From NCBI GenBank assembly GCA_903881505.1, contig CAIRTM010000075.1, positions 20,878 through 84,877 of the forward strand: a stretch of DNA of 64,000 nt, in the 5' to 3' direction. Below are positions 43,092 through 64,000 of this stretch, piece by piece. Origin of the DNA: an uncultured delta proteobacterium. GTDB taxonomy: Bacteria > Desulfobacterota > WTBG01 > CAIYCZ01 > CAIRTM01. A program made the position numbers and the translations under genes. The notes beneath the pieces were generated by a model. The model made no database searches. It saw only the letters and a program-made list of their open reading frames with translations, and was not told where the DNA came from. Each line of letters opens with the position of its first letter. The stretch's first letter is position 1.

Positions 43092-43359
43092 GTCTCAATC
43101 CTCCAATAAAATTAATGTACGGCGCTGTCAAAGCGCCTTGCTGGTATTTAAAAACCTGCGGCATTTCCGGAGCAGTGCCCGGTGTGCACGCACAGGGTAA
43201 ATCCCTGTGCGGTCGGGAATACGTGCAACGCTCAAGACAGTCTTTCAGGAAAGCCTGCAGCGAAAAAAAATGAGTATAATTGAGCGCCCTGTGCCTGTCA
43301 ACTCAAAAAGGCCCGCCTGCTCCAAACCTAGCGGAAATGCGGGCTTTTTCGACCCTGCG

Positions 43360-43388
43360 TTGACTTCTCGCGACCGGGTGGTTATAGT
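43360..43388 (+). promoter_or_regulatory. Consensus-like sigma70 promoter TTGACT-17-TATAGT ending 8 nt before the TPM-gene ATG. Implies a leaderless or near-leaderless transcript.
   Basis: -35 at 43360-43365, spacer 17 nt, -10 at 43383-43388, ATG 43397. No room for a Shine-Dalgarno. Confidence 0.45.
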
Positions 43389-43396: not shown

Positions 43397-44188
43397 ATGA
43401 ACACGCTGCACGGCATACCCCGTTACCGCCTGGCAGGCACGCTCGTATGCGCATGCATGCTGGCATGCCTGGCCGCGGCTGCACCGCACAGTGCCTACGG
43501 GGCATTCCCCCGGCCGCGCGGGGCTGTGAACGATTTCGCGGGCGTGCTTTCGACCGCGGCTGCCGCGCGCATGGAGGCCCTGGCAGAAGAGATTCTCCAG
43601 AAAACCGGCACGGCCGTTGTCGTGGGGGTTTTCTCCTCCCTTGACGGAAGCGATCCGGACCAGTTCGCCAATGAACTCTATGAAGCCTGGGGGATCGGCA
43701 AAAAAGGCGAAGACAAGGGCGTACTGATCATGCTGGCCGTGCAGGAGCGCCGCGTGCGCATCGAAACCGGCTACGGCGTTGAAGGCGTGCTGCCCGACGG
43801 GCTTGCCGGGAGCATCCTTGACCGCTACGTTGTACCGCAGCTCAGGCAGAACCGCTTTGACGAGGGTCTGCTCAATGCCGTGGCAGCTGTCGGACAGGTG
43901 CTTGCCCGCGATGCGGGCGTCCGGCTCACCGGCGCCGTGCAGGCCCCGGCCGCGCAGCGCAACGGTGCTTCACGGCGGCCCGGCGGGCTGATGTCATTTG
44001 TGCCCCTGATTTTCATCGCCCTGATGCTGTGTACGCGCTCGGGCAGGCGCATGCTGCCCCTGCTGCTGTTCATGGCCCTCTCGGGCGGGCGGGGCGGCGG
44101 CGGTTTCGGCGGGGGCGGGTTCAGCGGCGGTTTCGGCGGTTTCGGCGGCGGCATGTCCGGCGGAGGCGGCGCGGGACGGGGGTTTTAG
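43397..44188 (+). CDS. TPM-domain (YgcG-like) protein with signal peptide, C-terminal TM helix and Gly-rich tail.
   Basis: Has the TPM-core phrases GAVNDFAGVLS...VVVGVFSSLDG...LYEAWGIGKKGEDKGVLIMLAVQERRVRIETGYG. The C-terminal tail is GGRGGGGFGGGGFSGGFGGFGGG. Confidence 0.75.
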   Translation: MNTLHGIPRYRLAGTLVCACMLACLAAAAPHSAYGAFPRPRGAVNDFAGVLSTAAAARMEALAEEILQKTGTAVVVGVFSSLDGSDPDQFANELYEAWGIGKKGEDKGVLIMLAVQERRVRIETGYGVEGVLPDGLAGSILDRYVVPQLRQNRFDEGLLNAVAAVGQVLARDAGVRLTGAVQAPAAQRNGASRRPGGLMSFVPLIFIALMLCTRSGRRMLPLLLFMALSGGRGGGGFGGGGFSGGFGGFGGGMSGGGGAGRGF

Positions 44189-44288
44189 AGGGCTGGTGCA
44201 GCTCGGAGTCGGGAGTTCGGAGCGGGGAGAAAGAGTAAAAGAAATGAAGAGGCAGGCCCTGCCTGCCCGTTTGGAGAGGTAATGAACG

Positions 44289-45032
44289 ATGGCAGGCATA
44301 CCCAAGAATCCGGAAGAAATATTCGAGCCTGTGTGCGCTGACTTCGAAGCCCTGTACGGAGGCGACCTGCTCAGCGTCATCCTCTACGGCAGCTGCGCGC
44401 GCGGCGAATATGTGCCCGGGAAATCCGATATCAATTTCATGCTGATGCTGTCCGAAAACGGGATCACGCAGCCTGGCAGGGCCCTGGCAACAGTTGAAAA
44501 GTGGCGCCGCCGCGCGGTTGCGACCCCTTTGCTGCTCACGCGTTCCTACATTGAAACCTCGATTGACTCCTTTCCGATCGAGTTCCTGAATATCCGGGCC
44601 GCCTACCGTGTGCTGCGCGGCGAAGATCCGCTCAAACAGCTCGTTTTCGACCACCTGATGCTGCGCCTGCAGTGTGAGCGGGAGCTGAAGGGCAAACTCT
44701 TGCACCTGCGCGCGCAATTTCTGGAAACATCCGGAAACGCCCGCCGCATCAAAGAGCTGATTGCGCGCTCCCTGCCGACATTCTCGGCACTCTTCCAGGC
44801 CGTTGTGGTTCTGCGCGGCAAACCCGTGCAGCAGGGCCGCGCCGCGCTGCTGGGCGCCATGCAGCAGGTCCTCGGCCTGGATCAGGCTCTGTTTACTGAC
44901 CTGTACGCCGTGCGTGAAGGCCGCATGCGCCTGAACACGGCCGGATCAATCGCACTTATGGAACGCTATATCAAAGAGGTACGGCGCCTGGCCCTGGCGG
45001 TTGACAGCCTTGAGCCGGGCCCGGCATCATAA
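44289..45032 (+). CDS. Nucleotidyltransferase-fold protein (Pol-beta superfamily) with C-terminal all-helical domain. The NTase motif is variant (GS-x10-SDIN).
   Basis: LSVILYGSCARGEYVPGKSDINFMLM matches the hG[GS]...D.[DE] NTase signature, except Asn replaces the second acidic residue. 247 aa. Confidence 0.55.
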   Translation: MAGIPKNPEEIFEPVCADFEALYGGDLLSVILYGSCARGEYVPGKSDINFMLMLSENGITQPGRALATVEKWRRRAVATPLLLTRSYIETSIDSFPIEFLNIRAAYRVLRGEDPLKQLVFDHLMLRLQCERELKGKLLHLRAQFLETSGNARRIKELIARSLPTFSALFQAVVVLRGKPVQQGRAALLGAMQQVLGLDQALFTDLYAVREGRMRLNTAGSIALMERYIKEVRRLALAVDSLEPGPAS

Positions 45033-45063
45033 AAAACCATCCCCATATTTCAGGAGGAACAGT

Positions 45064-45630
45064 ATGAAGAAGACGCTACGCAGCATAGTGATGATCGCAG
45101 CAGCCCTGTACCTGTGCACTACGCTTTCGGGGTGCGGCACCTACAACCGTCTGGTTACCCTTGATGAGGGCGTCAAGGAAGCCTGGTCACAGGTGGACAC
45201 CCAGCTGCAGCGCCGCTTCGACCTGATCCCCAACCTGGTCGAAACGGTCAAGGGCTTTGCGGCCCAGGAGAAAGAAGTGTTCATCAAGGTGACGGAAGCG
45301 CGTTCGAGAGTGGCCGGGGCCGGCACGATCCCCGAAAAGATCGAGGCCAACAACCAGCTCACCTCGGCCCTGAGCCGCCTGCTGGTCGTTGCCGAGCGCT
45401 ATCCCGACATCAAGTCCAACGAAAATTTCATACGCCTGCAGGATGAGCTGGCCGGCACGGAAAACCGCATAGCGGTCGCCCGCCGGCGCTACAACGAGGC
45501 GGTCAAAGAGTATAACGTGAAAGTGCGCTCGTTCCCCTCGAACCTGATGGCAAAGGCATTCGATTTTGAAAAGGCCGAGTTCTACGAGGCCCCGGCTGAA
45601 GCCTCCGCGCCGCCGAAGGTGCAGTTTTAA
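45064..45630 (+). CDS. lemA: LemA-family lipoprotein/membrane protein.
   Basis: LemA core (RLVTLDEGVKEAWSQVDTQLQRRFDLIPNLVETVKGFAAQEKEVF...ALSRLLVVAERYPDIKSNENF...VARRRYNEAV). Start ATG 45064 after a CAGGAGGAA RBS. Confidence 0.85.
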   Translation: MKKTLRSIVMIAAALYLCTTLSGCGTYNRLVTLDEGVKEAWSQVDTQLQRRFDLIPNLVETVKGFAAQEKEVFIKVTEARSRVAGAGTIPEKIEANNQLTSALSRLLVVAERYPDIKSNENFIRLQDELAGTENRIAVARRRYNEAVKEYNVKVRSFPSNLMAKAFDFEKAEFYEAPAEASAPPKVQF

Positions 45631-45657: not shown

Positions 45658-45692
45658 CGGGCAGGCACAGGGGCCTGCCCCTGCAATTTTTT
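45658..45692 (+). terminator. Rho-independent terminator after lemA (GGGCAGGC-acagg-GCCTGCCC followed by CTGCAATTTTTT).
   Basis: 8-bp GC stem and a U6 tract seen directly. Confidence 0.6.
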
Positions 45693-45777
45693 GCCGCCCT
45701 TGTAACGCGCGCGCACGTTTTGCTCGACGGCGCTGCAATGGGTTCCAAAACGTTAAAAACAAAAGGCCTTACTCTCC

Positions 45778-46542: not shown

Positions 46543-46701
46543 GGGCGAACAGAGGTCTGCCCTCGAACATATGAAACCACGAGGGAACAGACTCAATCTG
46601 CTCCCGGGGCACTAATTGAGCTAAACGTCAAGCGTCCTGCAGAATGCGTCTCTCTAGAATGCAAAGAAGCGTCTTGCAGTGAACTGCTCATGCAATAATT
46701 T

Positions 46702-46760
46702 TACCGTGAAATCCGGTTTTTGTATGATAGAGTTCCCGTAACTTTTAACACGTGGCAGCA
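46702..46760. repeat. Repeat copy 1 of a local intergenic motif (CGTGAAATCCGG...AGTTCCCGTAACTTTTAACACGTGGCAGC).
   Basis: Related copies sit at 48310-48370 and 49405-49440. Each is 90-190 nt upstream of a + strand gene start. Confidence 0.5.
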
Positions 46761-46832
46761 TGGGGGGCTCTCGGATGCGCATCGCAAGAACTAATTGTTG
46801 CCATGTTTTCGGATGATTCCCAAGGTGGGTGT

Positions 46833-48143
46833 ATGAAAAAAAGACCGGCGCTGCTCTGTATTTTCGCATTGTTGTTGCTACTCACAAACCTTCTGCCCGC
46901 AGCACACGCCTCGACTATTTCCGCTAAACTCCGTGAACTGTACGCTGTGGGCGACTATCCTGCTATCGCAAAACTTCTTGAAAAAAGAATCGACGAAATT
47001 GAATCCGCAACCGCTGCAGGCAGCACCAAAGCCGACGGCAAAGAGATCTACAACCTACACCTGATGCTTGCGCATGTCTGCGCATGGCAGCTGGACAGGT
47101 TTAATGACGGTCTTGCAGAGTACGAAAGAGCGCTTGAGCTGAGGCGGGAACAGGAAAGGGAGGCACTGCAAAAAAAAATCGGGCCGAACATGTCAAGCCC
47201 GGCGCTCGAATATTTATTTATGGCTGGCATGTATGAACACATAAAAGATTACGCACGGGCAGTGGAATACTATCAAAAAACCCTTCAGGAGGCAAAAGCG
47301 TACAGCGATGCTTTAGCCAGCAGCGGTGAACGGGTTTTTCTGGGCAACGATCTTACGTACTTAATACAGTACGCAATCGACACCATCCAAATACAACTTC
47401 AGTCAGCAAAAACGTATACGCCTTTGGCAAAAAAAATTGACTTGATGCATGAAAGCAACCCGATGATGATGAACTTCATGTTCGCCACTGTATTTCCGGA
47501 ACAGGAATATATCTTCGAAAACAAAAGTTTTGTATTAGAAAACAATAACCTGAATATGGAGGCATTTATAAAACACAATGCCGCCAGCACGTATTCAATG
47601 TTGCTGGAAGGCGGCTTGCTGACGGGCGGTTTGACTGCAATCACTGACGATTCAATACAACGGGCCGCAGAAGCATTTCTCAAAAAATATCCTGACAGTT
47701 ACCTGTCTCTTGCGACTGGATTTTTGCTGTCCCAAAATTTTCTGAAAAATGGAGATGCCGAAAAAGCGCAATCGCATCTGGATGCGCTTAAAAAAACGGC
47801 AAAAAAAAGGAATATCGAGTTAGTTATCGAGCCGGACAAAAAGTTTGCCTCACCCGAGTCTACCTGGGAAGCCCTTCGCCAGGCTATGGCGGTCGGAGAT
47901 ATTGAAGCTGCCCTGTCATGCCACACCCCCGGTGACCCGAAATACCGAGAAATCTACAGTAAGTTTGGGCCGGAAATCTTAAAAAAAATTGGGGCGGACA
48001 TGAAGCCCATAGAAAAAATAAGTGCTGACGAACAAACAGCCAAGTATCGCGCCAACCGCAAGCACAAGGACATCGATAAGGAAATCACGTATTACGTATA
48101 CTTTGTAAAAACATACGGGGAGTGGAAAATAGAAAGCATGTGA
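46833..48143 (+). CDS. Secreted hypothetical protein (signal peptide, N-terminal TPR-like helical region, C-terminal alpha+beta domain).
   Basis: MKKRPALLCIFALLLLLTNLLPAAHAS signal peptide. Lower GC (about 45-50%) than the surrounding DNA. Flanked by copies of a short repeat. Confidence 0.6.
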   Translation: MKKRPALLCIFALLLLLTNLLPAAHASTISAKLRELYAVGDYPAIAKLLEKRIDEIESATAAGSTKADGKEIYNLHLMLAHVCAWQLDRFNDGLAEYERALELRREQEREALQKKIGPNMSSPALEYLFMAGMYEHIKDYARAVEYYQKTLQEAKAYSDALASSGERVFLGNDLTYLIQYAIDTIQIQLQSAKTYTPLAKKIDLMHESNPMMMNFMFATVFPEQEYIFENKSFVLENNNLNMEAFIKHNAASTYSMLLEGGLLTGGLTAITDDSIQRAAEAFLKKYPDSYLSLATGFLLSQNFLKNGDAEKAQSHLDALKKTAKKRNIELVIEPDKKFASPESTWEALRQAMAVGDIEAALSCHTPGDPKYREIYSKFGPEILKKIGADMKPIEKISADEQTAKYRANRKHKDIDKEITYYVYFVKTYGEWKIESM

Positions 48144-48309
48144 GAGCCTGGATGCGGCTTGAAGCATCCTGGCTACAGTGTGCTTGCTGCGAAGGCCCTG
48201 AGCATTCTGGGGGAGGTTGTTAATAAAATACACAAACATTCTCTGCCCACCCGTGTCAGAAATTGTCCTTTGTAAACAAAGTTGCTCGGAGCTGAAATGC
48301 TCCATTTTT

Positions 48310-48370
48310 CGCGTGAAAATCGCCCTCCCCTGTGGTAAAGTTCCCGATACTTTTTGATGGCTCCGCAAGA
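48310..48370. repeat. Repeat copy 2 (CGTGAAAATCGCC...AGTTCCCGATACTTTTTGATGGCTCCGC).
   Basis: Aligns with 46702-46760 at about 70% identity over about 55 nt. Confidence 0.5.
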
Positions 48371-48499
48371 AGTCGTCACACCGGTAAAAACCGGTGCCCA
48401 GTATTTCACTAACTACTTAAATTCCTGGACTCCGACCGGAGTTTATCCTGAGCACAGCCGAAGGGCCGGAAAGACTCGCAACAACTGAGGGTTTAGAAG

Positions 48500-49324
48500 A
48501 TGGCTGAACAGAAACGACGATTCACTCCGCTGCACATCGAGGCGACATCGCTTCCCGACGCCTGGTTCCAGACCGTGTACCGCTGCGTGGAACAGGGGCG
48601 CGATTTCACGATCGACCGCGGCTCGTACGCGGGCCAGAAGCGCCTTGAGTTCGACTACATCACCGTGCACATCCGCTACCCCGGCTCGCGGCCCCTGCTG
48701 CCGCAAATCCCCTCGCAGTACAACCTGCCCAACCCCGTGGCCGACGACTATCTGGACGACTACGTGCCCTATCTCATGACCGGCGCGATGCAGCCCGGCG
48801 AATCATACACCTACGGCCAGCGCATGTGCCGCTATCCGCTTGATTCGGCCTGGCATGAGTACAACAGCAAAACCAACACCGACATCCTCATCCGGGAACC
48901 CGAGGTGTGGAACAATCCCCTGATCATTATCCGGGACGGCAACGGCCTGTTCCTGAACCAGATCGAGCTTCTGATCTGGACCTACAAGAACAAGGGATTT
49001 CGCAACAACCAGATGGTGCTGCAGGTGGCCCACCCCACCGACATGCTGCTGCAGGACCCGCCCTGCCTGCGTGCGATCGACACCCGCATCCAGGACGGCA
49101 GCCTGCACTTTATCATCAACTTCCGCTCCTGGGACCTCTGGGGCGGCTTTCCCGCCAACCTTGCCGGCATGCAGATGATGAAGGAATACATCGCCTCCGA
49201 GATCGGCGTGCAGGACGGTGAAATGATCGTCTGCTCCAAGGGCCTGCACATGTACAACTATGTGTGGGAGCTGGCCGAGTGTTTGCGCGGGAAAACGATC
49301 GAAGAATTCCGCGCGGGCACATAG
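48500..49324 (+). CDS. Divergent thymidylate-synthase (ThyA) fold enzyme. Could be a pyrimidine-nucleotide C5 methylase or hydroxymethylase.
   Basis: 274 aa. The ThyA catalytic core is conserved: PPCLRAIDTRIQDGSLHFIINFRSWDLWGGFPANLAG (Cys nucleophile; RSxD...P.N.A) and GEMIVCSKGLHMYNY (the GD.H.Y.NH-like motif). YTYGQRM matches the YGKQWR motif. The N-terminal half is very divergent from canonical ThyA. Confidence 0.6.
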   Translation: MAEQKRRFTPLHIEATSLPDAWFQTVYRCVEQGRDFTIDRGSYAGQKRLEFDYITVHIRYPGSRPLLPQIPSQYNLPNPVADDYLDDYVPYLMTGAMQPGESYTYGQRMCRYPLDSAWHEYNSKTNTDILIREPEVWNNPLIIIRDGNGLFLNQIELLIWTYKNKGFRNNQMVLQVAHPTDMLLQDPPCLRAIDTRIQDGSLHFIINFRSWDLWGGFPANLAGMQMMKEYIASEIGVQDGEMIVCSKGLHMYNYVWELAECLRGKTIEEFRAGT

Positions 49325-49404
49325 CAGGCTTTTAGAAATCCCTTCAATAGGCAAACAAGCCGTTTCCCTTGCATGCGGTGACTAGGCAAACGTCAGGATT
49401 GATA

Positions 49405-49440
49405 AAAACATCTGCCCTGGCATGTGACTTTTAACACGGG
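49405..49440. repeat. Repeat copy 3 (partial): GTGACTTTTAACACGGGCAGTTACACG.
   Basis: Shares the core ACTTTTAACACG(N)GGCAG with copy 1. Confidence 0.45.
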
Positions 49441-49609
49441 CAGTTACACGCTCCGCAGGCTGTATACGAAAAATAGCGGCCCCTGTATCGAGGGTATTTT
49501 TCGTGCGGTTTTCAGCCAGGCAAAATGCATTTGCATTATTCTGTTAACATGTTATTTTCCTGACAATTATTAACTCCTTCCGCGGGTGGGTTTGCACGGG
49601 AAATCCGAT

Positions 49610-51118
49610 ATGGCAAAGACCTTTCAGCCCGGCTATGATGTGGTCGTTATCGGCAAAGGCATTGCGGGTTTAACAGCGGCCGTGAATGCCGCCGCCCGGG
49701 GAGCATCGGTAGCCCTCGTTTACCACAGCACCCTGTGTTCTTCACATCTGGCCTATGAAGGTGTCTTCCGCTTTCCGGAAAACATCGACGAACTGGACCA
49801 CATGGTCCGCGAACACGGCTGCGGTTTGGCCGACCCGAAACTGCTGGCCGCTTTTTTCCACCACTACCGGGACTTCGGTCAGGACGATCTGGAACGGATT
49901 TTCCCGCTGGCCGGTGCAAAGCCGATCGGCAAAAAACACCGGCTGGGAGGTCCCGGCATTCTGGCCGACCTGGAGCACCTGTGCAACTCGACCGGCGTCA
50001 CCTTTATTCGCGGGACAGTGGTCAAAATCGATGCGCCAGACGGGATCCTGTCCGCCGTGCGCATGTATCACGTACGGCGCCTGATCACCATACAAGCCAA
50101 AAGCGTCATTATTGCATCCGGCGGCGGCATCGGGAACATATACGGAACCTCCGATAATTGCGCAGCCTGCTGCCCTCCCGGAACGGCACTGGCCCTGAAC
50201 GCAGGCGCGCGCCTGAGGGACCTGGAATTTATCAGCTTTCATCCGTTTGGCGCAATCGGCTGCCGGACCCATGACGGCACAACACCGGTATTTACCTTTT
50301 TCAGCATAGGGGAAAATACAGAAATCTACAGCAACGAGACAAACCGCAGAATCCCTTTTATCGAAGACCTGATTGCGACAAGAACCGCCGACAAAAACCC
50401 GCATGATAACATTTTCAGGATTGCCCGTACCGTTTGGCAGAACAACGGCATCCATATATTCAAAAACATCCGCGGCAGCCTGCAGCGAATCAACCTGTCG
50501 GTTGTGGCGCACAGCCTGATCGGCGGCATTGAGGTAAACGCCGACTTTAAAACCGCTGTCAATGGCCTGTACGCAGCCGGAGAAGCGGCTGCGGGGCTGA
50601 ACGGCGCCGGCCGGCTGCCGGGCATGGCCCTGCTGGAGGGATATATTTCCGGGAAACAGGCCGGCATCAATGCCGCGGACCATGCCGGCAAAAGCGGTTT
50701 TTACCCGGTTGACCCGGACGGATTTTTCCCGGCCTCGATGCGCTTCGGCATGTTTTCAAATCTAACGGATACAATAAAACAGATCGCAGATGCAGCCCTC
50801 TTTATTGAAAGAACGGCTGCCGGGCTTCAACTCGCGCGGAAAAGGCTTCTGAAGCTCCAGTCGGGAATCCTGAAGAACCATCTCGCCCAGCATATCGAAA
50901 ACGACCTTTTAGAAACGGCCTTGGCCATGGTCGATGCTTCTCTTCTCAGAAAAGAAAGCCGGGGCAACTTTTCCCGTCAGGACTTCCCGGGTATGGATCC
51001 GGGCATGCAGCGAAACATCGTCATCCAGAAAAATCGCCCCGATTCTGAAATTACCGTCTCCTGGAGCAATGAACCTGCGGCCTTTTTGGCCTGCAGCAAC
51101 GGACAGCCGTCTTTTTGA
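49610..51118 (+). CDS. FAD-dependent oxidoreductase of the L-aspartate oxidase / fumarate reductase flavoprotein family.
   Basis: YDVVVIGKGIAGLTAAVNAA dinucleotide fold, HSLIGGIEVNADFKTAVNGLYAAGEAAAGLNGAGRLPGMALLEGYISG, and a C-terminal ...LLRKESRGNFSRQDFP. About 503 aa from ATG 49610 (or GTG 49586). Confidence 0.7.
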   Translation: MAKTFQPGYDVVVIGKGIAGLTAAVNAAARGASVALVYHSTLCSSHLAYEGVFRFPENIDELDHMVREHGCGLADPKLLAAFFHHYRDFGQDDLERIFPLAGAKPIGKKHRLGGPGILADLEHLCNSTGVTFIRGTVVKIDAPDGILSAVRMYHVRRLITIQAKSVIIASGGGIGNIYGTSDNCAACCPPGTALALNAGARLRDLEFISFHPFGAIGCRTHDGTTPVFTFFSIGENTEIYSNETNRRIPFIEDLIATRTADKNPHDNIFRIARTVWQNNGIHIFKNIRGSLQRINLSVVAHSLIGGIEVNADFKTAVNGLYAAGEAAAGLNGAGRLPGMALLEGYISGKQAGINAADHAGKSGFYPVDPDGFFPASMRFGMFSNLTDTIKQIADAALFIERTAAGLQLARKRLLKLQSGILKNHLAQHIENDLLETALAMVDASLLRKESRGNFSRQDFPGMDPGMQRNIVIQKNRPDSEITVSWSNEPAAFLACSNGQPSF

Positions 51119-51155
51119 CCGGCAAACAGACAAAAACAGCGATTCTCCAAAGCGC

Positions 51156-51878
51156 ATGCAAAAACAAACATCTGTTCCCGAACACCCGGTCATCGGCATC
51201 CTCGGCTGGGAAGACAGCAACACGGCAAGCATATACGGCAGCATCGCCGCTCCGGGCACCTTTTCGTTTCCCGTCCTGTTCATGCCCGTCACCGGGGCCT
51301 GTTATGAAACCGTTATTGCACACCCGGACCGGCGGATATTGAATGCGATGCTTGCGGCAGCCAGGCACATGGAAAAATCCGGCGTCAAGGCGATAACCAC
51401 CAGCTGCGGGTTCAACGCCATATTCCAGTCCGACCTTGCCGGAGCGGTTTCTGTGCCGGTAGTTACGTCCACCCTGCTGCTGATCCCGTTTATCGCCGGC
51501 GCCATCGGCGGCGCAAAAAGGATCGGCATTATAACTGCCGACAAAAATCACCTGACCCGCGGCCTTCTGGAAAAATCAGGGGTTTCCGGCCAGACGCCTC
51601 TGTGTGTCTACGGCATAGAAAAAACCGCAGCCTATCCCCATACCTGCCAGAATGCGCGGCCCGAACTGGTGGACCGGGACGAGTTCCGCAGAGAGGTGAC
51701 CGGTATCGCGGAATTGATGGTTACTGAAAATCCCGACCTGGGCGCCATTGTCCTGGAGTGCACCATTTTGCACGTCTTTGCAGACGACATCAAACGTATG
51801 ACCGGGTTGCCGGTATTTGATATCGTCTCCCTCACCAATTACATGTACAACGCCGTTGCGCGCAGTACTTCACCCTGA
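51156..51878 (+). CDS. Asp/Glu/hydantoin-racemase-superfamily protein (Asp racemase / maleate isomerase / arylmalonate decarboxylase-like).
   Basis: 240 aa with two conserved Cys in ITTSCGFNA and VLECTIL contexts, and an N-terminal IGILGW. 37 nt after the flavoprotein stop. Confidence 0.6.
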   Translation: MQKQTSVPEHPVIGILGWEDSNTASIYGSIAAPGTFSFPVLFMPVTGACYETVIAHPDRRILNAMLAAARHMEKSGVKAITTSCGFNAIFQSDLAGAVSVPVVTSTLLLIPFIAGAIGGAKRIGIITADKNHLTRGLLEKSGVSGQTPLCVYGIEKTAAYPHTCQNARPELVDRDEFRREVTGIAELMVTENPDLGAIVLECTILHVFADDIKRMTGLPVFDIVSLTNYMYNAVARSTSP

Positions 51879-51902
51879 TGACCCGGTCATTCGGGATGGG
51901 GT

Positions 51903-52979
51903 GTGGGGCGGAATACTGCCGAAGGCATTGAATTTTTTATAGACAGTTCAACGACGGAAAACAGTTTGGTAGAAATTGTACACAACCCCCGACTGATCCA
52001 GACGGACCTGCCGGTATGCGCATCGGAGGGATACCTGAAGTCCGCCGCAAAAACCTACGGCTGGTTTGTCAGTCCTGAATTCATCCTGCCCTTTTATACC
52101 TTGAACCGGGCTTTCACCAGGCACATGATTTTCACTTCGGGCCCCGTAAAAAACACCCCGGCGACTACCATACAGCAGGAAAAAGCGTTTCTGACAGACG
52201 TGGTCGCCCGGTGCCGCCGCATGGCTGTCGATGTAATCAGCCAGCCGAAAACAACGGCGCTCTTTACCACGTATCCCGACGGCGCCATCTGCATCCCGTG
52301 GGGATGTTATCAGGTTGACCTTCTCAAAAGCGAAGATGAGCTGTTTTCCAGGTTACATGCCAGCCGCCGCCGTGTTATCCGGAAGGCGGAACGGGAGGGT
52401 GTTTGCATCTTCCGCGGCCCCGAACACATTAATGCCTGCCATAGGCTCATTGTACGGACGCTGGAACGACAGGGCCGGCCGGGCATACCGCATGCGCAGT
52501 TAGCGGCCTATCAGGAACATCTGCCGCTGAACGTATCATTTTATCTGGCATGCCATAACCGCGCAGACCATGCCTGCGCCGTCCTGGTACATGACAGCGA
52601 AACCGCCTTCTACATTCACGGCGGAAGTTGCACAACGCCGCATCACGGTGCTGCAAGCCTGCTTCACTGGACCGCCATGCGGGACATGAAATGCCGGGGG
52701 CTGAAGACCTACAATTTTGTCGGCGGCAGGATCCGTCCGGTCAAGGGGTCGAAGCAGGAATTCATTCAGCTGTTCAAATCACGATTCGGAACCACCTTTA
52801 CGAGCGGTTATTTATGGAAGTATCCGTTGAGCCCCTGGAAACACAGCCTGTACCGGACGTACAATCGTTTCAAAGGCCTGGCCAGGGGGAAATATCATTA
52901 CGAAGACATCATCGACAACGAGATCAGAACCGGCAGCATGGAAAAATCAACACTGATTAATAATGCTCTCCGGACATAA
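51903..52979 (+). CDS. FemAB-like / GNAT-fold acyl- or aminoacyl-transferase (pfam Acetyltransf_6-like).
   Basis: 358 aa. C-terminal ...SFYLACHNRADHACAVLVHDSETAFYIHGGS...GAASLLHWTAMRDMKCRGLKTYNFVGG matches the FemX/FemAB-family core. GTG start 24 nt after the preceding stop. Confidence 0.6.
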   Translation: MGRNTAEGIEFFIDSSTTENSLVEIVHNPRLIQTDLPVCASEGYLKSAAKTYGWFVSPEFILPFYTLNRAFTRHMIFTSGPVKNTPATTIQQEKAFLTDVVARCRRMAVDVISQPKTTALFTTYPDGAICIPWGCYQVDLLKSEDELFSRLHASRRRVIRKAEREGVCIFRGPEHINACHRLIVRTLERQGRPGIPHAQLAAYQEHLPLNVSFYLACHNRADHACAVLVHDSETAFYIHGGSCTTPHHGAASLLHWTAMRDMKCRGLKTYNFVGGRIRPVKGSKQEFIQLFKSRFGTTFTSGYLWKYPLSPWKHSLYRTYNRFKGLARGKYHYEDIIDNEIRTGSMEKSTLINNALRT

Positions 52980-53061
52980 TCCGGTCCGCAGGGCATATTC
53001 GGAATTTTCAAAGGTACTGCGGAACAATAACAAAAACCAACCCGTTGCAATCCACCTGTTT

Positions 53062-54006
53062 ATGAAAAAAACGATTTTAATCGTCCTGCACAAACATGAC
53101 TCGCCGCTGCAAAACTCCTGCTATGTAATCAAGTATTTCATCCAGCGATGGGCGGAACAGGGATATACCGTTTTGAGCGCTAACGGCACCGACAAAAAAA
53201 TTGATGCGGATATCGTGATCAATCATGTTGACTTAACCGTTACGCCTTCGAACTACATCCGTTATTTCAGCGCATATAACAAAAAAATTAATACGGATGT
53301 AACGGATATTTCCAAAACAGCTGTCAGCAACTGCATTTTAAAACCGGGTGCAAGCCATGCCGGTCCGGTAATTGTGAAAACGAACAATAATTGCGGCGGG
53401 CTGAGAGAAGAGAACATGCGGATGCGCTCTCGAAGCATGGCTGCCTGCGCACGAAAGATTACATCGGTTTTGTCAAACCGTATCAAGAAGGCCGAAATAC
53501 ACAATAGCGCATTGCAATCATCAGGGGTAACGCCATCAAACTGCAGACACATTGACACTGTTAAAAACTGGAACCATGTCACAACGCTGGATAACAGAAA
53601 CTATCCGATCTTTGACAGTGTCCACCAGGTACCCGCCGGCGTTTGGAATAATGAAGCTCTGGTTGTCGAACGATTTATGCCGGAACGTGACGCCGCGGGC
53701 AACTATGTATGCAGATACCTCTATTTTCTGGGAGATAAATCCTTTTGTGTTGTCACAACATCGGAAAATCCTGTCGCCAAAAGCCAGATCATCGGCAGGC
53801 AGATTCTACCGGGCCCCGGGCCGGTAGAGTTGCAACAATTTCGCAGGACATTCCGCATGGATTACGGAAGACTGGATTACACCTTAGTAGACGGCCGGGT
53901 TTGGCTGTTTGATGCCAACAGGACCCCAACGTTTTCTCCGGAAACCTATGCGACATACAGGGAGCAGATTGATGCGTTGTCGGAAGGGATACACTCATTT
54001 TTTTAG
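53062..54006 (+). CDS. ATP-grasp-fold ligase (RimK/Ddl-like), putative.
   Basis: 314 aa. C-terminal ...ALVVERFMPE...YLYFLGDK...LDYTLVDGRVWLFDANRTPTFS resembles the ATP-grasp C-domain (E/D...N metal ligands). Low GC (about 45%). Confidence 0.5.
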   Translation: MKKTILIVLHKHDSPLQNSCYVIKYFIQRWAEQGYTVLSANGTDKKIDADIVINHVDLTVTPSNYIRYFSAYNKKINTDVTDISKTAVSNCILKPGASHAGPVIVKTNNNCGGLREENMRMRSRSMAACARKITSVLSNRIKKAEIHNSALQSSGVTPSNCRHIDTVKNWNHVTTLDNRNYPIFDSVHQVPAGVWNNEALVVERFMPERDAAGNYVCRYLYFLGDKSFCVVTTSENPVAKSQIIGRQILPGPGPVELQQFRRTFRMDYGRLDYTLVDGRVWLFDANRTPTFSPETYATYREQIDALSEGIHSFF

Positions 54007-54035
54007 AGCATGTAACTAAATAGCGTAGTTTGATC

Positions 54036-54101
54036 GTCATTGCGGGCGCAGCGAGAAATCTTTATAAAAACGACAGGATATCTCCCCGCGGCAGAGATGA
54101 C
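54036..54101. repeat. Palindromic interspersed repeat copy B. GTCATTGCGGGCGCAGCGAGAAATCT...ATATCTCCCCGCGGCAGAGATGAC.
   Basis: Same termini and GAGAAATCT core as copy A at 3695-3763. Intergenic between the ATP-grasp and membrane-protein genes. Confidence 0.6.
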
Positions 54102-54180
54102 ACTGCTTATATGGTTATGGTAAAAAAAAATGCTCTAAATCATCTTCAACTTCTTATACAGGTAAAAGCTGTTTTTCCCT

Positions 54181-55086
54181 ATGGCCAAACATAAACGCCT
54201 TATCGCTTTATTCCTTATATTCATTGCCCTATTGTTTCTCTTTCGGTGGGAAGTTAAATTTGCCTTTACAGCTCTCTGCAAAGGACAGCTGCAGGAAGCA
54301 GTTACGAACTCCTCATCGCAGGAGCAAACCGCCACCCTGCCATACAAGGCACTCTACCAAGGCACGCAGGCCATCACCATCGACCGTGACAGTGCTGTTA
54401 TGAATTTCACAAGGCCTTCAGCCCTTGACCGCTTGAGTTTGCAGGAAATCGCCGACTTCCGAATGAAAAAGGTAGCCCAATACAGCTTTCTTAACATTTT
54501 TCCTCCCGGCTACAATCCGCTTGCGGGCGCAAGCGCCAGAATCTACAAAAAGATTGAGCCGGGGGCGCTTTGGGTCGGACAAACTCCTTTCTACATAGCC
54601 AATCCCTACCTGCTCATAATTTTGTCGAACGCATACCGGGTTCTGCCCATAGATCTTCCCTGCCATGACCTGTCCGTCACCTACGACAGCGCAATCATCG
54701 AAGAACGGCTGCAGGGTGCTACGGCAAAATGTTTTTTTGATCTGGTCTACGGAGAAAGTGCGGAACACCCCGGAACGCTGCGCGTCAATATGGTGAATGC
54801 GTACGACAGCGGATTTCACTATGTAAGCATTGATAAGGAACAGTCCTTAAACATACAGGCATATAAGTCTTCCGGCAACATTGTTGGCGGTCTTTTCAGC
54901 CAGCCATCTTTTTATCACAGGGGGCGGCATGGCTCTAACAATATAAGCCCCGAGGATAAAAACGGCTGGATTACTCTGCAAGAAGAAGGTGCGGCCACCA
55001 GAATATTTTTTAAACTCTGGAGAAACAAGCCTGCTTCTCCAGAAAACACCGCTGATATGCTGTATATTATTTATATTATTCCTTAG
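54181..55086 (+). CDS. Membrane-anchored hypothetical protein (N-terminal TM helix, about 270-aa extracytoplasmic domain).
   Basis: MAKHKRLIALFLIFIALLFLF signal anchor. Low GC. No recognisable motif. Confidence 0.5.
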   Translation: MAKHKRLIALFLIFIALLFLFRWEVKFAFTALCKGQLQEAVTNSSSQEQTATLPYKALYQGTQAITIDRDSAVMNFTRPSALDRLSLQEIADFRMKKVAQYSFLNIFPPGYNPLAGASARIYKKIEPGALWVGQTPFYIANPYLLIILSNAYRVLPIDLPCHDLSVTYDSAIIEERLQGATAKCFFDLVYGESAEHPGTLRVNMVNAYDSGFHYVSIDKEQSLNIQAYKSSGNIVGGLFSQPSFYHRGRHGSNNISPEDKNGWITLQEEGAATRIFFKLWRNKPASPENTADMLYIIYIIP

Positions 55087-55485
55087 GCAATGAAGCTGTG
55101 ACAACACGTGCTCTGCGGATACAACAACCATCGGACAGCAAACAACAGCCTTTCATCGTACCATCAGCAGTTTAAGAATCCATAACAGTTCAGTCCTCGT
55201 GGATAATCGGGATCAAAGGTGTCATATGTGGTGATTTGCTCATCGGCATAATACTCCGATGGCGGCGAGTTGATCTTTGGCGGCGGCCGCTTCTGCGACT
55301 CCCCCAGCCCCAGATGCTGCACTACAGAGAGGCAAAATTGTTATGTGTCAGCCAAAAGGCGACAGAACTGCATTTAGAATAATACAACTGTTGCAAAATT
55401 TGCTGCTGACGGGAAAACCTAACGGGTGAATTAGTATAACCTCGGCATAATCATTTCCGGGCGGTTTCCGTGTTAAACATAAAAA

Positions 55486-55528
55486 TACAACAGCCCCTGT
55501 GCATGATTCGCACAGGGGCTGTTTTTAT
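55486..55528. terminator. Bidirectional rho-independent terminator (CAGCCCCTGTGC-atgattc-GCACAGGGGCTG with T tracts on both sides) just 3' of groEL.
   Basis: 12-bp stem flanked by TTTTTAT on + and TGTATTTTTAT on -. Confidence 0.75.
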
Positions 55529-55551
55529 ATCAAGGCAGCGCGGCTGCTGTA

Positions 55552-57222
<1,671 letters not shown>

Positions 57223-57244
57223 TCATAAAAATAGATAAAATTGA

Positions 57245-57535
57245 TTACTTTTCGATAACACCCAGGATATCATCTTCACGCATGATCAGGTGCTCGTCGC
57301 CTTCAATTTTGACCTCGGTTCCAGCGTATTTGCTGAACAGCACTCTGTCACCGGCTTTTACATCAGGAGCGGTGCGCTCGCCCTTGTCGTTGAGCTTGCC
57401 TTTGCCTACAGCGATGACTTTGCCTTCCATCGGCTTTTCCTTTGCGGAATCAGGAATTATAATACCGCCCTTTGTTTTTTCTTCGCTTTCCAGCCGTTTA
57501 ACAATGATACGGTCCTGCAACGGTCTGATTTTCAT
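57245..57535 (-). CDS. groS: Co-chaperonin GroES (Hsp10).
   Basis: [35 protein letters not shown]..., 96 aa, RBS GGAGGAAA. Confidence 0.98.
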
Positions 57536-57784
57536 GGGTGTTTCCTCCTGTCAACGAATCGGTAAACGGTTGTTATTAACAAAACAGAACAAACTCTGTT
57601 GGATAAATCAGTTTATTTCCGACAGCCTGTGTCTGTTGTCCTGCTCCGGCGCATTGTTCGTGTCTGCCGGAATGATCACAAAAAATAAGACCAAAACATT
57701 GAAAGTCAACCTGCCGGTCAAAAAAATGTGACTTTTGGCCTTCCGGCCCGGCAAGGTACATACCGTTGATTTCAGGGTGTGATG

Positions 57785-58399
57785 TTAATCTTCCCCGGGC
57801 GCAGCCGGAACGCGTGAAACAAGCACCCGCGCAGGCCGGAGCAGTTTATCCCCCAGCATATAGCCTTTTTGAAACTGTTCAAGAACGGTATTGTCTGCAT
57901 GATCCGGATGCTCCTGCTGGGCCATGGCCTCATGAAATGCCGGATTAAAAGGCTCGCCAACTGCATGCAGCGGTTTTATGTCGAACTTTTCCAGCGCGCC
58001 CAGCAGCTGCTTGAGGATCATCTCCAGACCCGTAACAACCGGCTCGACTTCGGCTGCCTGACGAGACTGTTCAAGCGCCCGTTCAAAGCTGTCCACCACC
58101 GGCAGTATTTCAAGGGCGATACGTTCGGTACCATATTTCATGAGCCCTTCTTTTTCGCGGATCACACGCTTGCGGTAATTGTCAAACTCGGCCATGGTGC
58201 GCAACAGGCGGTCGGACAGATCGTTTTTTTCCTGCTCAAGCGCCTGCAGGCGCTCGTCCTCTTCGGCTGCTTCCCCGGGGGCAGTATCAACACAGCCATC
58301 CGGCACGGCATTGCCATCTGGCGGCGAAACTGCACTGCCGACATCAAACGTACTTTCAGGGCTTTCATGATTAACGGTTTTTTTCTTTTTATGACTCAC
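57785..58399 (-). CDS. grpE: Nucleotide exchange factor GrpE.
   Basis: Coiled-coil plus C-terminal beta domain (...FDNYRKRVIREKE...KFDIKPLHAVGEPFNPAFHEAM...). GTG start. Confidence 0.9.
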   Translation of the reverse strand: MSHKKKKTVNHESPESTFDVGSAVSPPDGNAVPDGCVDTAPGEAAEEDERLQALEQEKNDLSDRLLRTMAEFDNYRKRVIREKEGLMKYGTERIALEILPVVDSFERALEQSRQAAEVEPVVTGLEMILKQLLGALEKFDIKPLHAVGEPFNPAFHEAMAQQEHPDHADNTVLEQFQKGYMLGDKLLRPARVLVSRVPAAPGED

Positions 58400-58619
58400 C
58401 GGATCGCTCCATGCTGAGGGGTGTTCGTGCGTGCGACGGCAGGCTGCTGTCCGTACAGGTTCTTATGTGCGCTGGTACGGGGTAAATATAAGACCGGCAG
58501 GCAAAATGTCAAGCGCCCAGGGCGCGGAAAAATTAAAGAATACTTCGGCGTAATCGATAATTTAATTATGTGCACGGGCATTTGTTTGTGCTATGTGTAG
58601 CATATTGTGCTGGCGGCCT

Positions 58620-58648
58620 CTTCCGCATGCGCTCAGCGCATGCGGAAG
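58620..58648. promoter_or_regulatory. Perfect 13-bp-arm palindrome CTTCCGCATGCGC-tca-GCGCATGCGGAAG, 32 nt upstream of the MCP start and about 220 nt upstream of grpE. Operator or terminator-like.
   Basis: Seen directly, followed on + by GGCTACTTTTTATTTATG. Confidence 0.5.
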
Positions 58649-58679
58649 GGCTACTTTTTATTTATGTGCGGGGGTGCAT

Positions 58680-60644
58680 ATGAAAAACGGTCTGCGTGAA
58701 AAGTTCCTGGTTCCGACAATCTGCCTTATTCTTATAGGACTGTCCATTACCAGTTTTGTCTCATACCGCAGGGCGCGCAGCATGCTGGTTGACACAGTCA
58801 ATGGTCAGCTGCGTCAAAACACCGAATCAATTCTGGATTTTATCGCTTCCTGGGCGGAAAACCGCAGGCAGGATGTTGCCCTGTGGGCATCGCAAAACAA
58901 CATCGTGCAGGCGATCGGCATGGCGGGCGAGGACGCCGATGGCCAGAGCGGCAGTTTCGTGTTCGTGCGGGAGGTGAATGAGGATTTGCGTAAATACGCA
59001 CAGGCAAATCCTGCGTATGCTGAAATCGGTGTCGCCGGCCGTACCGGGGTTGTATTGACCACGAGTCTTATCGATGTCGTGATGGATGAGGGCCGACGCG
59101 GCGGGGGCGATTTCATCCTCGGGAAAAATATCCGGGAGGCGGATTTCTTTCAAAATGCACTCAAGGGATCGGCCTTTGTAAGCAGTGTGCGTCTTAACCC
59201 TGAAACCGGCAAGCCGGTTTTTGTTATTGCGTCACCGGTCGTGCAGGCTGTGGAAGGCGCAGCCGGCAGTGTCATCGGTGTTCTTTACGGCATGGTCGAC
59301 GTGCAGTACTTTTCCAGGCAGTTCGTTGAACAGAGAAAAATAGGCCAGAACGGGCGTGTCTTCATCATCGACAGGGAAGGCATGGTGATAGCGCACTCCG
59401 ACCAGAGCCGGATATTGACCGAGAATATAGCAAAGACCTCAATCGGCGCAACAATCCTTTCACAGAAAGACGGACTTGCGCAGTCTTCTGAAGGCGGGCA
59501 GGACTGGCTCGTTGGCTTTAAAACCGATACAGCCCTTGGCTGGACGGTTGTGGCGGTTGCCAGCATGGATGAGCTGATGGCGCCGGTGCGCAGCCTTGCA
59601 GGGTTTAATGGTATAACGACTATCATCATTCTGATAATTGCTGTCGGGGTTATTATTTATGTTGCCGCGCGTGTGAGCAGCCCCATTAATACAATTACGG
59701 CATCCCTGTATATGGTCGCCAGGCAGGTTTCGGGCGCGTCGTCCCAGATATCATCGGCCAGCCAGCAGCTGGCGCAGGGCGCGGCATCTCAGGCATCCTC
59801 GATTGAGGAAACATCGGCCTCGCTGGAAGAGCTGGCCTCCATGGCCAACCATAATGCCGACAACGCCCAGCAGGCAAGCAGTCTTTCGCAGGAGGCAACC
59901 GAGGCCGCTGACAGCGGCGCCGCGGCCATGCAGAAACTGCTGCAGTCCATGGACGGTATCAGCGCCAGCAGCAGCGAGGTTGCAAAAGTCGCCAGGGGCA
60001 TTGAAGAAATCGCTTTTCAGACAAATCTGCTTGCCCTGAACGCCGCTGTTGAGGCCGCGCGCGCCGGCGAGGCCGGCAGGGGCTTTGCCGTTGTGGCTGA
60101 TGAGGTGCGCAACCTTGCCCAGCGCGCATCCGAACAGGCCAGAGTAACCAGCACACTGATAACCGAAAGCGGCAACCGCACACGCGAGGGCGGCACGCAG
60201 GCTGCTGAAGCCAATGCCGTGCTCAAGGTTATTCAGGAGCGGGTGGCCAAGGTTGTCGGACTGGTAAGTGAGATTTCAGCGGCCAGCAAGGAACAGGCCC
60301 AGGGCGTTGAGCAGATCAACAAAGCCGTTTCAACCATGGAACAGATCGTGCAGCAGAATTCGGCGAACGCCGAGCAGTCGGCATCCGCCAGCGAGGAGCT
60401 CTCCGCCCAGGCGTTCCAGATGAAGGAGCTGGTCAGCACGCTCAACGAGCGCGTTGCCGGGTCTTCGGCTGCCAGGGAAGAGCAGGACGCCGGACACGGC
60501 AAAAGTCTCCCGGGAGCCCATGGCAGCACAGCCTCAGGGTCGTCCTCAGCCCTGCCGGCGCCCGGGAAAAAACATGACCGGGCCGCGCTCAAGGCGCAGG
60601 AGCTGATTCCTTTTGACGATGACGACGATTTGCATGATTTTTAA
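58680..60644 (+). CDS. Methyl-accepting chemotaxis protein with periplasmic Cache-type sensor domain.
   Basis: N-terminal TM, an about 280-aa periplasmic domain, a second TM, HAMP, and the MCP signalling domain (...[42 protein letters not shown]...). Acidic C-terminus [10 protein letters not shown]. Confidence 0.9.
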
Positions 60645-60995
60645 GATGCACCCGTAAAAATCTCCGCCTTCCCCGTACTGTTTTTAACAGCCGGGCAGTG
60701 TACATGCTGGCGTGGAACCTATTGCCCGGGACCAGCGAAAATACAAAGATACCTCACCTGCTCTGCATGTACATGTACGGCCATCGATCTGGAACACTGC
60801 TCCGTGTTCCAGAGTACGCAACTTTTTACTATAGCCTTACATTACGCATAAGGACTATTTGTCCTTGATTTTATTCTTCCGTAGAAACATAATCGCTGTA
60901 CATCATTGGAGCCGCCCTGCTCCGTCATGCTATGAGCGCGTTTGGATGGAAGCGGGTGTTTACCGCCATTAATTATTAAACAGAGGGGGACAATC

Positions 60996-61853: not shown

Positions 61854-61943
61854 CAGAAGGCAGACCTACCCGCTGCGTTCGCTGCAGCTTCCGGTACATT
61901 GGGATTGCAATCTTTTTAAAAATATTTAACACTGGAGCCCCCG

Positions 61944-61966
61944 CCCGGACAGCGGGGGCTTCGTGC
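61944..61966 (+). promoter_or_regulatory. Intercistronic GC hairpin GCCCCCGC-ccggaca-GCGGGGGC between tupA and tupB. Attenuator or partial terminator.
   Basis: 8-bp GC stem. The downstream U tract is weak (TTCGTGCTT). Confidence 0.4.
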
Positions 61967-62050
61967 TTGGGCCAAAGGCAGATGCTGAGTCCGCAGTATG
62001 CCGGCTCGCACATCAATCCCTTATAAATAAGCGGCAAGGGCTGGTAGAGC

Positions 62051-63840: not shown

Positions 63841-64000
63841 GGATGTGCCGCAGTCAGCGCCGGGCGATTGCCTGTTCGACATTGCCCTGAAGGGTTGAAC
63901 CAGAACGAGGCCGCGCTTTGTCTGTATGTGCCCCGATGCTTATTCTGAGGGTCGGCCCCGCGGTCTGGCAAAGTCACTTTTTCAAGCCGCAAAGCAGTAC

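Follow-up and report, generated by a model that had tools for sequence, protein, structure and literature searches.

The gene that lies between those for a TPM-domain protein and LemA in the window (the whole 64,000-nt stretch of delta-proteobacterial DNA analyzed here) belongs, as judged from the comparison of loci, to a conserved envelope cassette of three genes that many anaerobic bacteria carry and that is present in hundreds of lineages at the least. The product of this middle gene (termed NT below) has the two-domain nucleotidyltransferase (NTase) fold of the KNTase/ANT type, as established by profile and fold searches. LemA and YgcG-type TPM proteins are widespread in bacterial envelopes and have no agreed biochemical function; in a large set of lineages, a third protein with a recognizable nucleotide-binding fold is their obligate and often translationally coupled partner. 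The best explanation, held tentatively and at somewhat less than an even chance, is that the three genes make up a single conserved envelope cassette in which NT would be a cytoplasmic regulatory or adaptor subunit, probably nucleotide-binding, that serves a periplasmic, membrane-anchored TPM-LemA module. The whole finding is drawn from comparative genomics.

Locus layout and flanking signals

Three open reading frames were confirmed on the forward strand, encoding TPM, NT and LemA (Table 1). As a sequence-only reading of this DNA had proposed, they are co-directional and closely spaced, with intergenic gaps of 100 nt (TPM-NT) and 31 nt (NT-LemA). The trio is flanked on that one strand by a promoter-like site (5') and a terminator-like hairpin (3'). 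The latter, which the same reading had placed after the group, was recovered by the consensus scan; the hairpin (45668-45683) stands 38 nt past the LemA stop codon and is followed by a T-run. The downstream neighbor, tatD, starts at 45778.

Table 1. Features of the TPM-NT-LemA locus, in window coordinates
Feature	Position	Strand	Remarks
Sigma-70-like promoter	43360..43388	+	TTGACT (43360), 17-nt spacer, TATAGT (43388); consensus scan
TPM gene	43397-44188	+	263 aa; PF04536; identical gene call on public contigs
GC-rich hairpin	44250..44268		GGCAGGC..GCCTGCC; listed on the - strand by the scan
NTase-like (NT) gene	44289-45032	+	247 aa; profile and fold searches, alignments
LemA gene	45064-45630	+	188 aa; PF04011; start as called on four public contigs
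Intrinsic-terminator-like hairpin	45668..45693	+	CAGGGGCCTGCCCCTG then CAATTTTTTG; consensus scan

The promoter-like site scored 10/12 in the consensus scan. Its -35 and -10 elements (within GGGTGGTTATAGTG) and their distance to the TPM ATG were kept in two relatives, L164 and L165 (84% and 76% protein identity), in which the flanking intergenic DNA has diverged. No Shine-Dalgarno motif was found in the sequence upstream of this ATG. Because the ATG lies only 8 nt downstream of TATAGT, the TPM mRNA probably has no leader or almost none, and the earlier suggestion of a consensus promoter that yields a leaderless transcript gains comparative support from the conserved spacing. Within the TPM-NT gap, GGAG repeats precede the GC-rich hairpin, which is partly conserved in L165; L164 carries an insertion of about 200 nt in this spacer. 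The intergenic regions were searched against Rfam with no RNA family match. The hairpin could be a candidate RNA processing or attenuation element. For LemA, the ATG at 45064 is most likely the start, and a TTG at 45001 is less likely; an AGGAGG ribosome-binding site is located 6 nt upstream of the ATG, and gene callers made the same choice on the four public contigs.

The TPM and LemA proteins

The TPM open reading frame matched Pfam PF04536 over residues 44-167 (E 3e-38; 131.1 bits, cut-off 22.1; domain positions 1-124 of 125). The protein is of the YgcG type, with a Sec signal peptide (cleavage near AYG/AF) and a periplasmic TPM domain; past this domain come a transmembrane (TM) segment at approximately 195-215 and a loop of basic residues (RSGRR), followed by another, short hydrophobic stretch and a tail rich in Gly. 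The signal peptide, the TM segment and the tail recur in TPM orthologs, the tail in 67/67. LemA matched PF04011 over the full-length domain (E 7e-63; 211.3 bits, cut-off 26.2), and its score against the MamQ equivalog (114.9 bits) fell below the cut-off of 250. It is a LemA family lipoprotein that features a lipobox (L-S-G-C) and the LemA four-helix domain, and the lipobox places this domain in the periplasm. The lipobox is found in the nearest relatives and is replaced by an N-terminal signal-anchor in more distant ones. NT carries neither kind of export signal. TPM has been proposed to assist the assembly of membrane complexes in a chaperone-like manner (PMC11237479, PMC12419801), and LemA-like bundles have been proposed to be membrane scaffolds (bioRxiv 10.64898/2026.07.15.738315).

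Fold of the NT protein

Sources annotate NT only as a "predicted nucleotidyltransferase". A single-sequence search of the PDB gave only marginal matches, and a family profile was needed. All 41 aligned family members matched PF01909 (best E 6.6e-6), and the family profile matched the chain of a solved NTase domain (E 1.8e-6); given these two results, the NTase assignment is more than chance. The broad family profile was matched to that of ANT(3'')(9) at 90.7% probability. Full-length matches of NT were to AadA, AAD(9) and KNTase, and the closest folds were those of ANT(3'')(9), KNTase, GlnE, DrrA and HalB, all of which are active transferases. The predicted model has a beta-sheet in its N-domain and, at 122-239, five helices toward the C-terminus, i.e. 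an MNT-like N-domain (ca. 1-118) and a HEPN-like helical bundle (ca. 122-239). The hG[GS] nucleotide-binding loop and alpha/beta core that define the Pol-beta-like superfamily were both found, as was the ANT/KNTase arrangement of an NTase domain and a HEPN-like helical domain in one chain of ca. 250 aa. Thus, the searches did not place NT in an unrelated helical family devoid of the NTase fold; they returned a KNTase/ANT-like layout, in keeping with the likeness to kanamycin NTase or MNT/HEPN modules drawn earlier. The C-domain, previously put at 150 aa, is indeed helical, but it is shorter (ca. 125 aa, residues ~122-239).

The active site and its conservation

NT reads L32-Y-G34-S35, ten residues, and then S46-D47-I48-N49, exactly the hG S x10 S-D-I-N motif that had been read from the letters. 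In hhalign, S46-D47-I48-N49 fell on S49-D50-I51-E52 of KNTase and on S46-D47-I48-D49 of AadA, with only residues ~3-62 aligned against these single sequences. The placement of N49 on KNTase E52/AadA D49 agrees with the earlier claim that Asn replaces the second metal-binding Asp. The [DE]-h-[DE] metal-carboxylate pair on beta-2 is absent, and D47-I48-N49 is found instead. The consensus of the third-carboxylate strand (K-R-x-V-S-T-P-L-F-L-T) contains no Asp or Glu; in the profile alignment, which has low confidence in this segment, AadA E87 is opposite a non-acidic residue (S/A78).

Conservation was assessed in 138 sequences (the window protein and 137 family representatives). N49 was kept in 130, and Glu was found there in only 2. 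D47 was present in only 107, with Asn in 19. The other conserved sites were D93 (135), E98 (134), G111 (138), D113 (130), R126 (131) and E130 (134), the last two of which are part of the C-domain family motif L-R126-L-Q-C-E130-R-E132-L-K-G-K136. A mapping of the C-domain onto the ATP-binding residues of AadA was rejected, as the alignment was too unreliable. In the window's own clade, the G-S pair (G34, S35), S46, D47, N49, E132 and K136 vary little or not at all. By co-variation statistics computed without correction for phylogenetic non-independence, about 22% of the family clusters lose D47 jointly with S35, N49, E132 and K136 and nonetheless remain part of the cassette; the second motif set (D93, E98, D113, R126 and E130) is retained where D47 is lost. 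The NT family neatly illustrates how an NTase fold can drift from catalysis as a new, putative conserved surface takes over.

It is possible, albeit doubtful, that NT is instead an active KNTase-like nucleotidyltransferase with a non-canonical site. A single Mg-NTP would then be held by D47 and N49, and a C-domain helix would supply a general base (E132) and a phosphate-binding residue (K136), like E145 and K149 of KNTase. As acceptor it would use a small molecule, an intermediate linked to lipid, or a protein (e.g. the TPM tail), and the product would feed the TPM-LemA module. That the nearest folds all belong to active transferases accords with such an enzyme, as does the near-invariance of the seven residues in the window's clade. 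The canonical residues are, moreover, lost together and not piecemeal, as would be expected if they made up a single functional site. A global alignment, when forced, pairs E132-x-x-G135-K136 with E145-x-x-G148-K149 of KNTase; however, this C-domain alignment was not significant (probability 4.7%) and was treated as a lead only. What argues against catalysis is that an invariant Asn replaces the second metal carboxylate and that beta-3 lacks the acid; equivalent carboxylate substitutions are used to inactivate the NTase fold, although Asn is able to ligate Mg2+ through its carbonyl oxygen. Finally, because the cassette is kept in the clusters without D47, the shared function cannot depend on such a reaction.

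Conservation of the cassette

In a first set of loci, TPM was located upstream of NT in 60/63 and LemA directly downstream in 67/68; the complete TPM-NT-LemA trio was present in 40 of the 44 evaluable relatives. A distant subgroup (27-36% identity) has the order NT-TPM-LemA, and the trio was complete in 30/31 of its loci, S-N-x-N variants included. The scan of this subgroup was seeded with a six-sequence subset, as the broader alignment of distant members was too diverse. Of 65 loci in this subgroup, 53 have an NT stop codon that overlaps the TPM start codon. When both gene orders were taken together, NT was linked to TPM and LemA in 70/75 fully evaluable loci. The middle protein is therefore not missing beside LemA/TPM in relatives, since the adjacency is conserved in two gene orders. 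The earlier description of the TPM/LemA pair as "split here" had to be abandoned: the NT gene is a fixed third member of the cassette, not a local insertion. The family comprises 878 clusters at 50% identity (E <1e-30), mostly from Thermodesulfobacteriota and other sediment anaerobes. A literature search for LemA with TPM and an NTase yielded no description of the trio.

We considered whether the three genes are functionally unrelated and adjacent only through incidental synteny in a single lineage. Among the nearest relatives the whole neighborhood (M23 peptidase, CtpA, FabD, the trio and TatD) is syntenic, as this explanation would have it. However, only the three genes were conserved together across 160 loci from diverse lineages, with varying flanks, and the trio persists through the change in gene order, with stop/start overlaps. 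Coincidence of this kind is hardly credible.

The resemblance of the N-domain to MNT antitoxins and of the C-domain to HEPN toxins raised another alternative, i.e. that NT is a fused MNT-HEPN-type toxin-antitoxin or anti-phage defense gene that merely happens to lie between TPM and LemA. Weak matches to PADLOC PDC-S09 (E 3e-10, residues 7-59 only) and to NCBIfam Hailong HalB (NF051895) were also obtained; the latter, at 14.4 bits over residues 30-57 only, was far under the cut-off of 190. The C-domain has no conserved Rx4-6H: no conserved His follows R126 or R131, and H139 is Gln in most sequences. Further, NT is locked to TPM and LemA in the 70/75 loci cited above, with variable flanks and no defense-island context. 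We judged this alternative highly improbable. The PADLOC and NCBIfam matches were confined to the N-terminal motif, and the defense and toxin-antitoxin readings were rejected.

A proposed cytoplasmic adaptor

The observations that bear on the adaptor reading are that NT keeps the G-S loop, S46 and the first metal Asp, that N49 is invariant and the third acid absent, and that the trio survives a change of order. Classical two-metal nucleotidyl transfer by NT would not be expected. The protein most likely binds nucleotide (Mg-NTP) and may act as a regulatory or adaptor subunit, a role that fits the earlier proposal that NT might be an NTase with a regulatory role or without activity, or else a nucleotide-binding partner, as the canonical site is degenerate in about one-fifth of the clusters that are still in the cassette. 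NT could reach the TPM protein via the only part of the latter exposed to the cytoplasm, i.e. the TM segment, the basic loop, and possibly the Gly-rich tail. A cytoplasmic state could thereby be coupled to a TPM-LemA scaffold at the periplasmic side of the inner membrane. The residues conserved throughout the family (D93, P96, E98, G111, D113, R126 and E130), presumed to form one surface, are the candidate partner- or ligand-binding site.

NT is cytoplasmic and the TPM and LemA domains are periplasmic, so any contact must use the very small cytoplasmic portion of TPM, the tail topology of which is uncertain. The invariance of G-S, S46, D47, N49, E132 and K136 in the window's clade would also be expected of an active non-canonical enzyme.

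A further reading, which we regard as unlikely, is that the trio is a trans-membrane device. A cytoplasmic NTase-derived nucleotide sensor or single-metal AMPylator would act on the C-terminal tail of TPM and control assembly of the periplasmic TPM-LemA scaffold in the maintenance of the envelope or of membrane complexes. If true, this would open the biology of LemA and TPM to mechanistic study for the first time. The cassette provides a testable handle on these two widespread proteins, along with a natural series of variants having an intact or a degenerate site.

Comparison with known systems

Like ANT(3'')(9)/AadA and ANT(4')-Ia (KNTase), NT combines within ca. 250 aa a Pol-beta-type NTase domain at the N-terminus with a HEPN-like helical C-domain, and its G-S loop and S-D-h-x motif are in register with theirs. 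It differs from them in having Asn, not Asp/Glu, as the second metal ligand and no acid at the AadA E87 position. Identity to these enzymes is 10-14%, and the NT gene is tied to TPM and LemA, with no resistance context. The NT motifs S-L-D-x-F-P-x-E-F and L-R-x-Q-x-E-x-E-x-K-G-K were not found in the AadA/KNTase sequences compared. Unlike in MNT/HEPN modules, the domains of NT are fused, and both the Rx4-6H RNase motif and a toxin-antitoxin context are lacking. The AMPylators GlnE and DrrA/SidM are much larger, multidomain proteins; their motif is the canonical G-x11-D-x-D, which NT lacks. MiD51, Mab21 and the DZF domains of NF45/NF90 are NTase-fold proteins that have lost the catalytic carboxylates and serve as nucleotide-binding or scaffolding subunits. 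These are eukaryotic and unrelated to NT in sequence and context, and the likeness is a functional analogy only.

In classical LemA-TPM (YgcG) operons, genes of the same two Pfam families lie side by side and point in one direction. Six LemA loci, all on plasmids or chromids, were sampled; LemA was followed directly by TPM/YgcG in 3 of the 6, and no match to the NTase-like gene was found in any of the six. LemA comes first in the classical order, often with a second TPM gene, whereas in the cassette described here LemA is last and the NT gene is obligatory.

Gene order and conservation of the cassette

The gene for NT, a 247-aa nucleotidyltransferase (NTase)-like protein, is a constant component of a cassette whose other two genes encode a TPM-domain protein and LemA. 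The sequence-only reading had described three closely spaced, co-directional ORFs in 43397-45630, and this arrangement was borne out (gaps of 100 nt between TPM and NT and of 31 nt between NT and LemA). The LemA start was assigned to the ATG at 45064 (gene callers; four public contigs with identical proteins), yielding 188 aa; AGGAGG is located just 5' of this codon.

Features of the window locus and its surroundings
Feature	Position	Orientation	Basis or remark
TPM-domain protein, 263 aa	43397-44188	co-directional with NT and LemA	PF04536, E 3e-38, full-length domain
NT, 247 aa	44289-45032	co-directional with TPM and LemA	PF01909 below threshold, residues 27-52, E 0.0027
LemA	45001/45064-45630	co-directional with TPM and NT	PF04011, E 7e-63
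Sigma-70-like site, TTGACT-17 nt-TATAGT	end 8 nt 5' of TPM ATG		simple consensus scan
Hairpin with T-run	45668-45693	3' of LemA	simple consensus scan
fabD promoter, TTGACA-17-TATACT	43301-43273	- strand	
436/463-aa ORF	46752-48143		no Pfam match; start of lower-GC stretch
Thymidylate synthase	48500-49324		next after the 436/463-aa ORF

Two sets of loci from relatives were compared. The first comprised 80 genome loci (NT identity 42-55%), mostly from Thermodesulfobacteriota but also from KSB1, Zhuqueibacterota, and others. TPM was upstream of NT in 60 of 63 evaluable loci and LemA directly downstream in 67 of 68; where both flanks were present, the full trio was found in 40 of 44. The exceptions were three loci lacking TPM (L020, L035, and L078) and one lacking LemA (L043). 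The second set consisted of 80 metagenome loci found with distant S-N-x-N members as seeds (NT identity 27-36%) and featured the order NT, TPM, LemA. TPM followed NT in 51/52 of these loci and LemA followed TPM in 36/37, with 30/31 full trios; the NT stop and TPM start codons overlapped by 4 nt or 1 nt in 53/65. Because it is kept through rearrangement and is accompanied by translational coupling, the linkage is strong evidence that the three products work together.

All-against-all ORF clustering of the first set found only TPM, NT, and LemA to be common to the loci; the next best clusters were antisense shadow ORFs, and real neighbors occurred in at most 14 of 80. Incidental synteny was rejected given this exclusive sharing, the two gene orders, and the stop/start overlaps. 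A toxin-antitoxin or defense role for NT was also rejected, on grounds that include the clustering and the linkage counts. At one locus (L049, 4217-5382), the NT gene is followed by LemA in two tandem copies.

LemA was also sampled in the forward direction, at six diverse loci from plasmids and chromids. The classical LemA-then-TPM/YgcG arrangement was present in three, so the premise that LemA and TPM genes are frequent neighbors holds in this small sample; in the others, LemA was paired with HtpX, DUF2207, or an unnamed 524-aa protein. No NT homolog was found at any of the six. Compared to the classical loci, the cassette with NT is an architectural variant in its own right, with LemA last. 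Outside the cassette (L167-L172), the partners of LemA are YgcG with a second TPM gene, HtpX, DUF2207, and the 524-aa protein, which suggests that LemA serves several envelope proteins as a generic adaptor.

Fold and active site of NT

The NT family is large: a word-indexed search returned 2063 matches, and an exhaustive search returned 4158 clusters at 50% identity with E up to 1e-3 (878 with E up to 1e-30). Members are mostly 240-250 aa long and, where named, are called "predicted nucleotidyltransferase" or "hypothetical protein". PF01909 was matched by 41/41 aligned members (best E 6.6e-6), and the family profile retrieved a solved NTase-domain chain (E 1.8e-6). An AF2 model calculated on the alignment was confident (pLDDT 92.5, pTM 0.82); in it, an alpha/beta N-domain is followed by five long helices at the C-terminus (122-239). 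NT therefore has an NTase fold of the ANT/KNTase type, and because of the profile matches and the model, its earlier comparison to kanamycin nucleotidyltransferase (KNTase, ANT(4')-Ia) and MNT/HEPN modules was correct. One representative, P0190 (366 aa), carries ca. 120 hydrophobic residues with three or four TM-like segments N-terminal to the NTase-like domain; this single case may be a variant anchored in the membrane or a fusion or artefact of gene calling, and it hints that NT acts at the membrane.

The motif described from the sequence, G34-S35, ten residues, then S46-D47-I48-N49, is matched exactly. For hhalign, the KNTase and AadA (ANT(3'')(9)) sequences were confirmed against PDB chains; the NT tetrad was placed opposite S49-D50-I51-E52 of KNTase and S46-D47-I48-D49 of AadA. 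A broader family profile aligned globally to a three-sequence ANT(3'')(9) profile (90.7% probability), with the AadA catalytic base E87 opposite a Ser/Ala position. No acidic residue was found in the family alignment along that whole NT strand (consensus K-R-x-V-S-T-P-L-F-L-T). The non-canonical active site is a trait of the whole family.

Conservation was counted over 138 sequences (the window protein and 137 representatives). In the motif, G34 is kept in 137, S35 in 128, S46 in 134, and N49 in 130; position 47 is Asp in 107, Asn in 19, and Glu in 5. Elsewhere, the counts were D93, 135; P96, 135; E98, 134; G111, 138; D113, 130; R126, 131; and E130, 134. In p-values that ignore shared ancestry, loss of D47 accompanies loss of S35 (9e-8), N49 (3e-6), E132 (0.002), and K136 (0.01); the same test, with the same proviso, detected no accompanying loss of D93, D113, R126, or E130. 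We read this sequence pattern as two conservation modules, a putative nucleotide-site module, apparently dispensed with in ca. 22% of clusters, and a universal, family-defining module.

Topology and proposed function

In the TPM protein, a signal peptide precedes the TPM domain; a strong TM segment, a basic loop, and a second, short hydrophobic stretch come next, and a Gly-rich tail completes the chain (tail present in 67/67 orthologs; same layout in the second set). LemA has an L-S-G-C lipobox in the window and nearest relatives and elsewhere a signal-anchor at a positively charged N-terminus; either would render the LemA domain periplasmic. No export signal was found in NT, whose N-terminus is conserved and hydrophilic. 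At the level of prediction, the compartments of the three proteins are established. The final residue of the TPM tails is a conserved aromatic (GGGGASGSW or GGGGATGRW in L084-L163, the second set; GGGGAGRGF in the window), which suggests a C-terminal recognition motif.

Classical two-metal transfer by NT is unlikely: Asn stands in place of the second carboxylate, no beta-3 acid is present, and the first Asp is absent from a fifth of the family that nevertheless retains the cassette. The main alternative to the model given below is that NT is active as a non-canonical transferase, in which D47 and N49 would work with an E132/K136 pair in the C-domain, by analogy with E145/K149 of KNTase; the alignment underlying this analogy is not significant, and we consider such an enzyme rather improbable. 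The function common to the family probably resides in the universally conserved D93, E98, D113, R126, and E130. In the most economical model, which is advanced tentatively as a little short of probable, NT would be a cytoplasmic, usually nucleotide-binding subunit that docks on the small part of the TPM protein exposed to the cytoplasm and regulates or scaffolds a periplasmic TPM-LemA assembly. This docking model fits published proposals that TPM domains act like chaperones in the assembly of membrane complexes (PMC11237479, PMC12419801) and that LemA-like bundles are membrane scaffolds or remodellers (bioRxiv 10.64898/2026.07.15.738315). In a Flavobacterium sppA mutant, lemA, a TPM gene, and an ECF sigma factor are induced together (PMC13236525), which lends weak, indirect support to an envelope role.

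The NTase fold and the TPM and LemA families are already known, and NT is annotated only generically. The searchable literature contained no description of the cassette or its two gene orders, nor of the invariant D-x-N site or the two-module conservation pattern. Nothing is overturned; two long-standing proteins of unknown function become part of a testable three-component system.

Transcription signals and the wider window

A consensus promoter and leaderless mRNA had been proposed for TPM, and the scan located the site. The -35 and -10 elements (the latter within GGGTGGTTATAGTG) and their exact spacing to the TPM ATG are kept in two relatives (NT 84% and 76% identical), whereas the remaining fabD-TPM intergenic DNA has diverged; this comparison supports a putatively leaderless or near-leaderless mRNA. 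The terminator noted after the trio would correspond to the hairpin 3' of LemA. Rfam returned no family matches in the region.

A symmetric hairpin (AAAAAGGCCCGC...GCGGGCTTTTT, 43309-43350) lies between the divergent fabD and TPM promoters and looks like a bidirectional terminator or operator; its left arm, CAACTCAAAAAGGC, is kept in the 76% relative. Conserved GGAG repeats (GGAGTCGGGAGTTCGGAG) open the TPM-NT spacer (44189-44288), which also includes a GC hairpin; in the 84% relative (L164, 3700-4000), ca. 200 nt are inserted in this spacer.

Synteny with the 76% relative (L165; TatD, then DprA, then TopA) ends directly after tatD. From there (46543-64000), the GC content is 0.50-0.55, compared to about 0.60; a genomic island or a rearrangement may account for this stretch.
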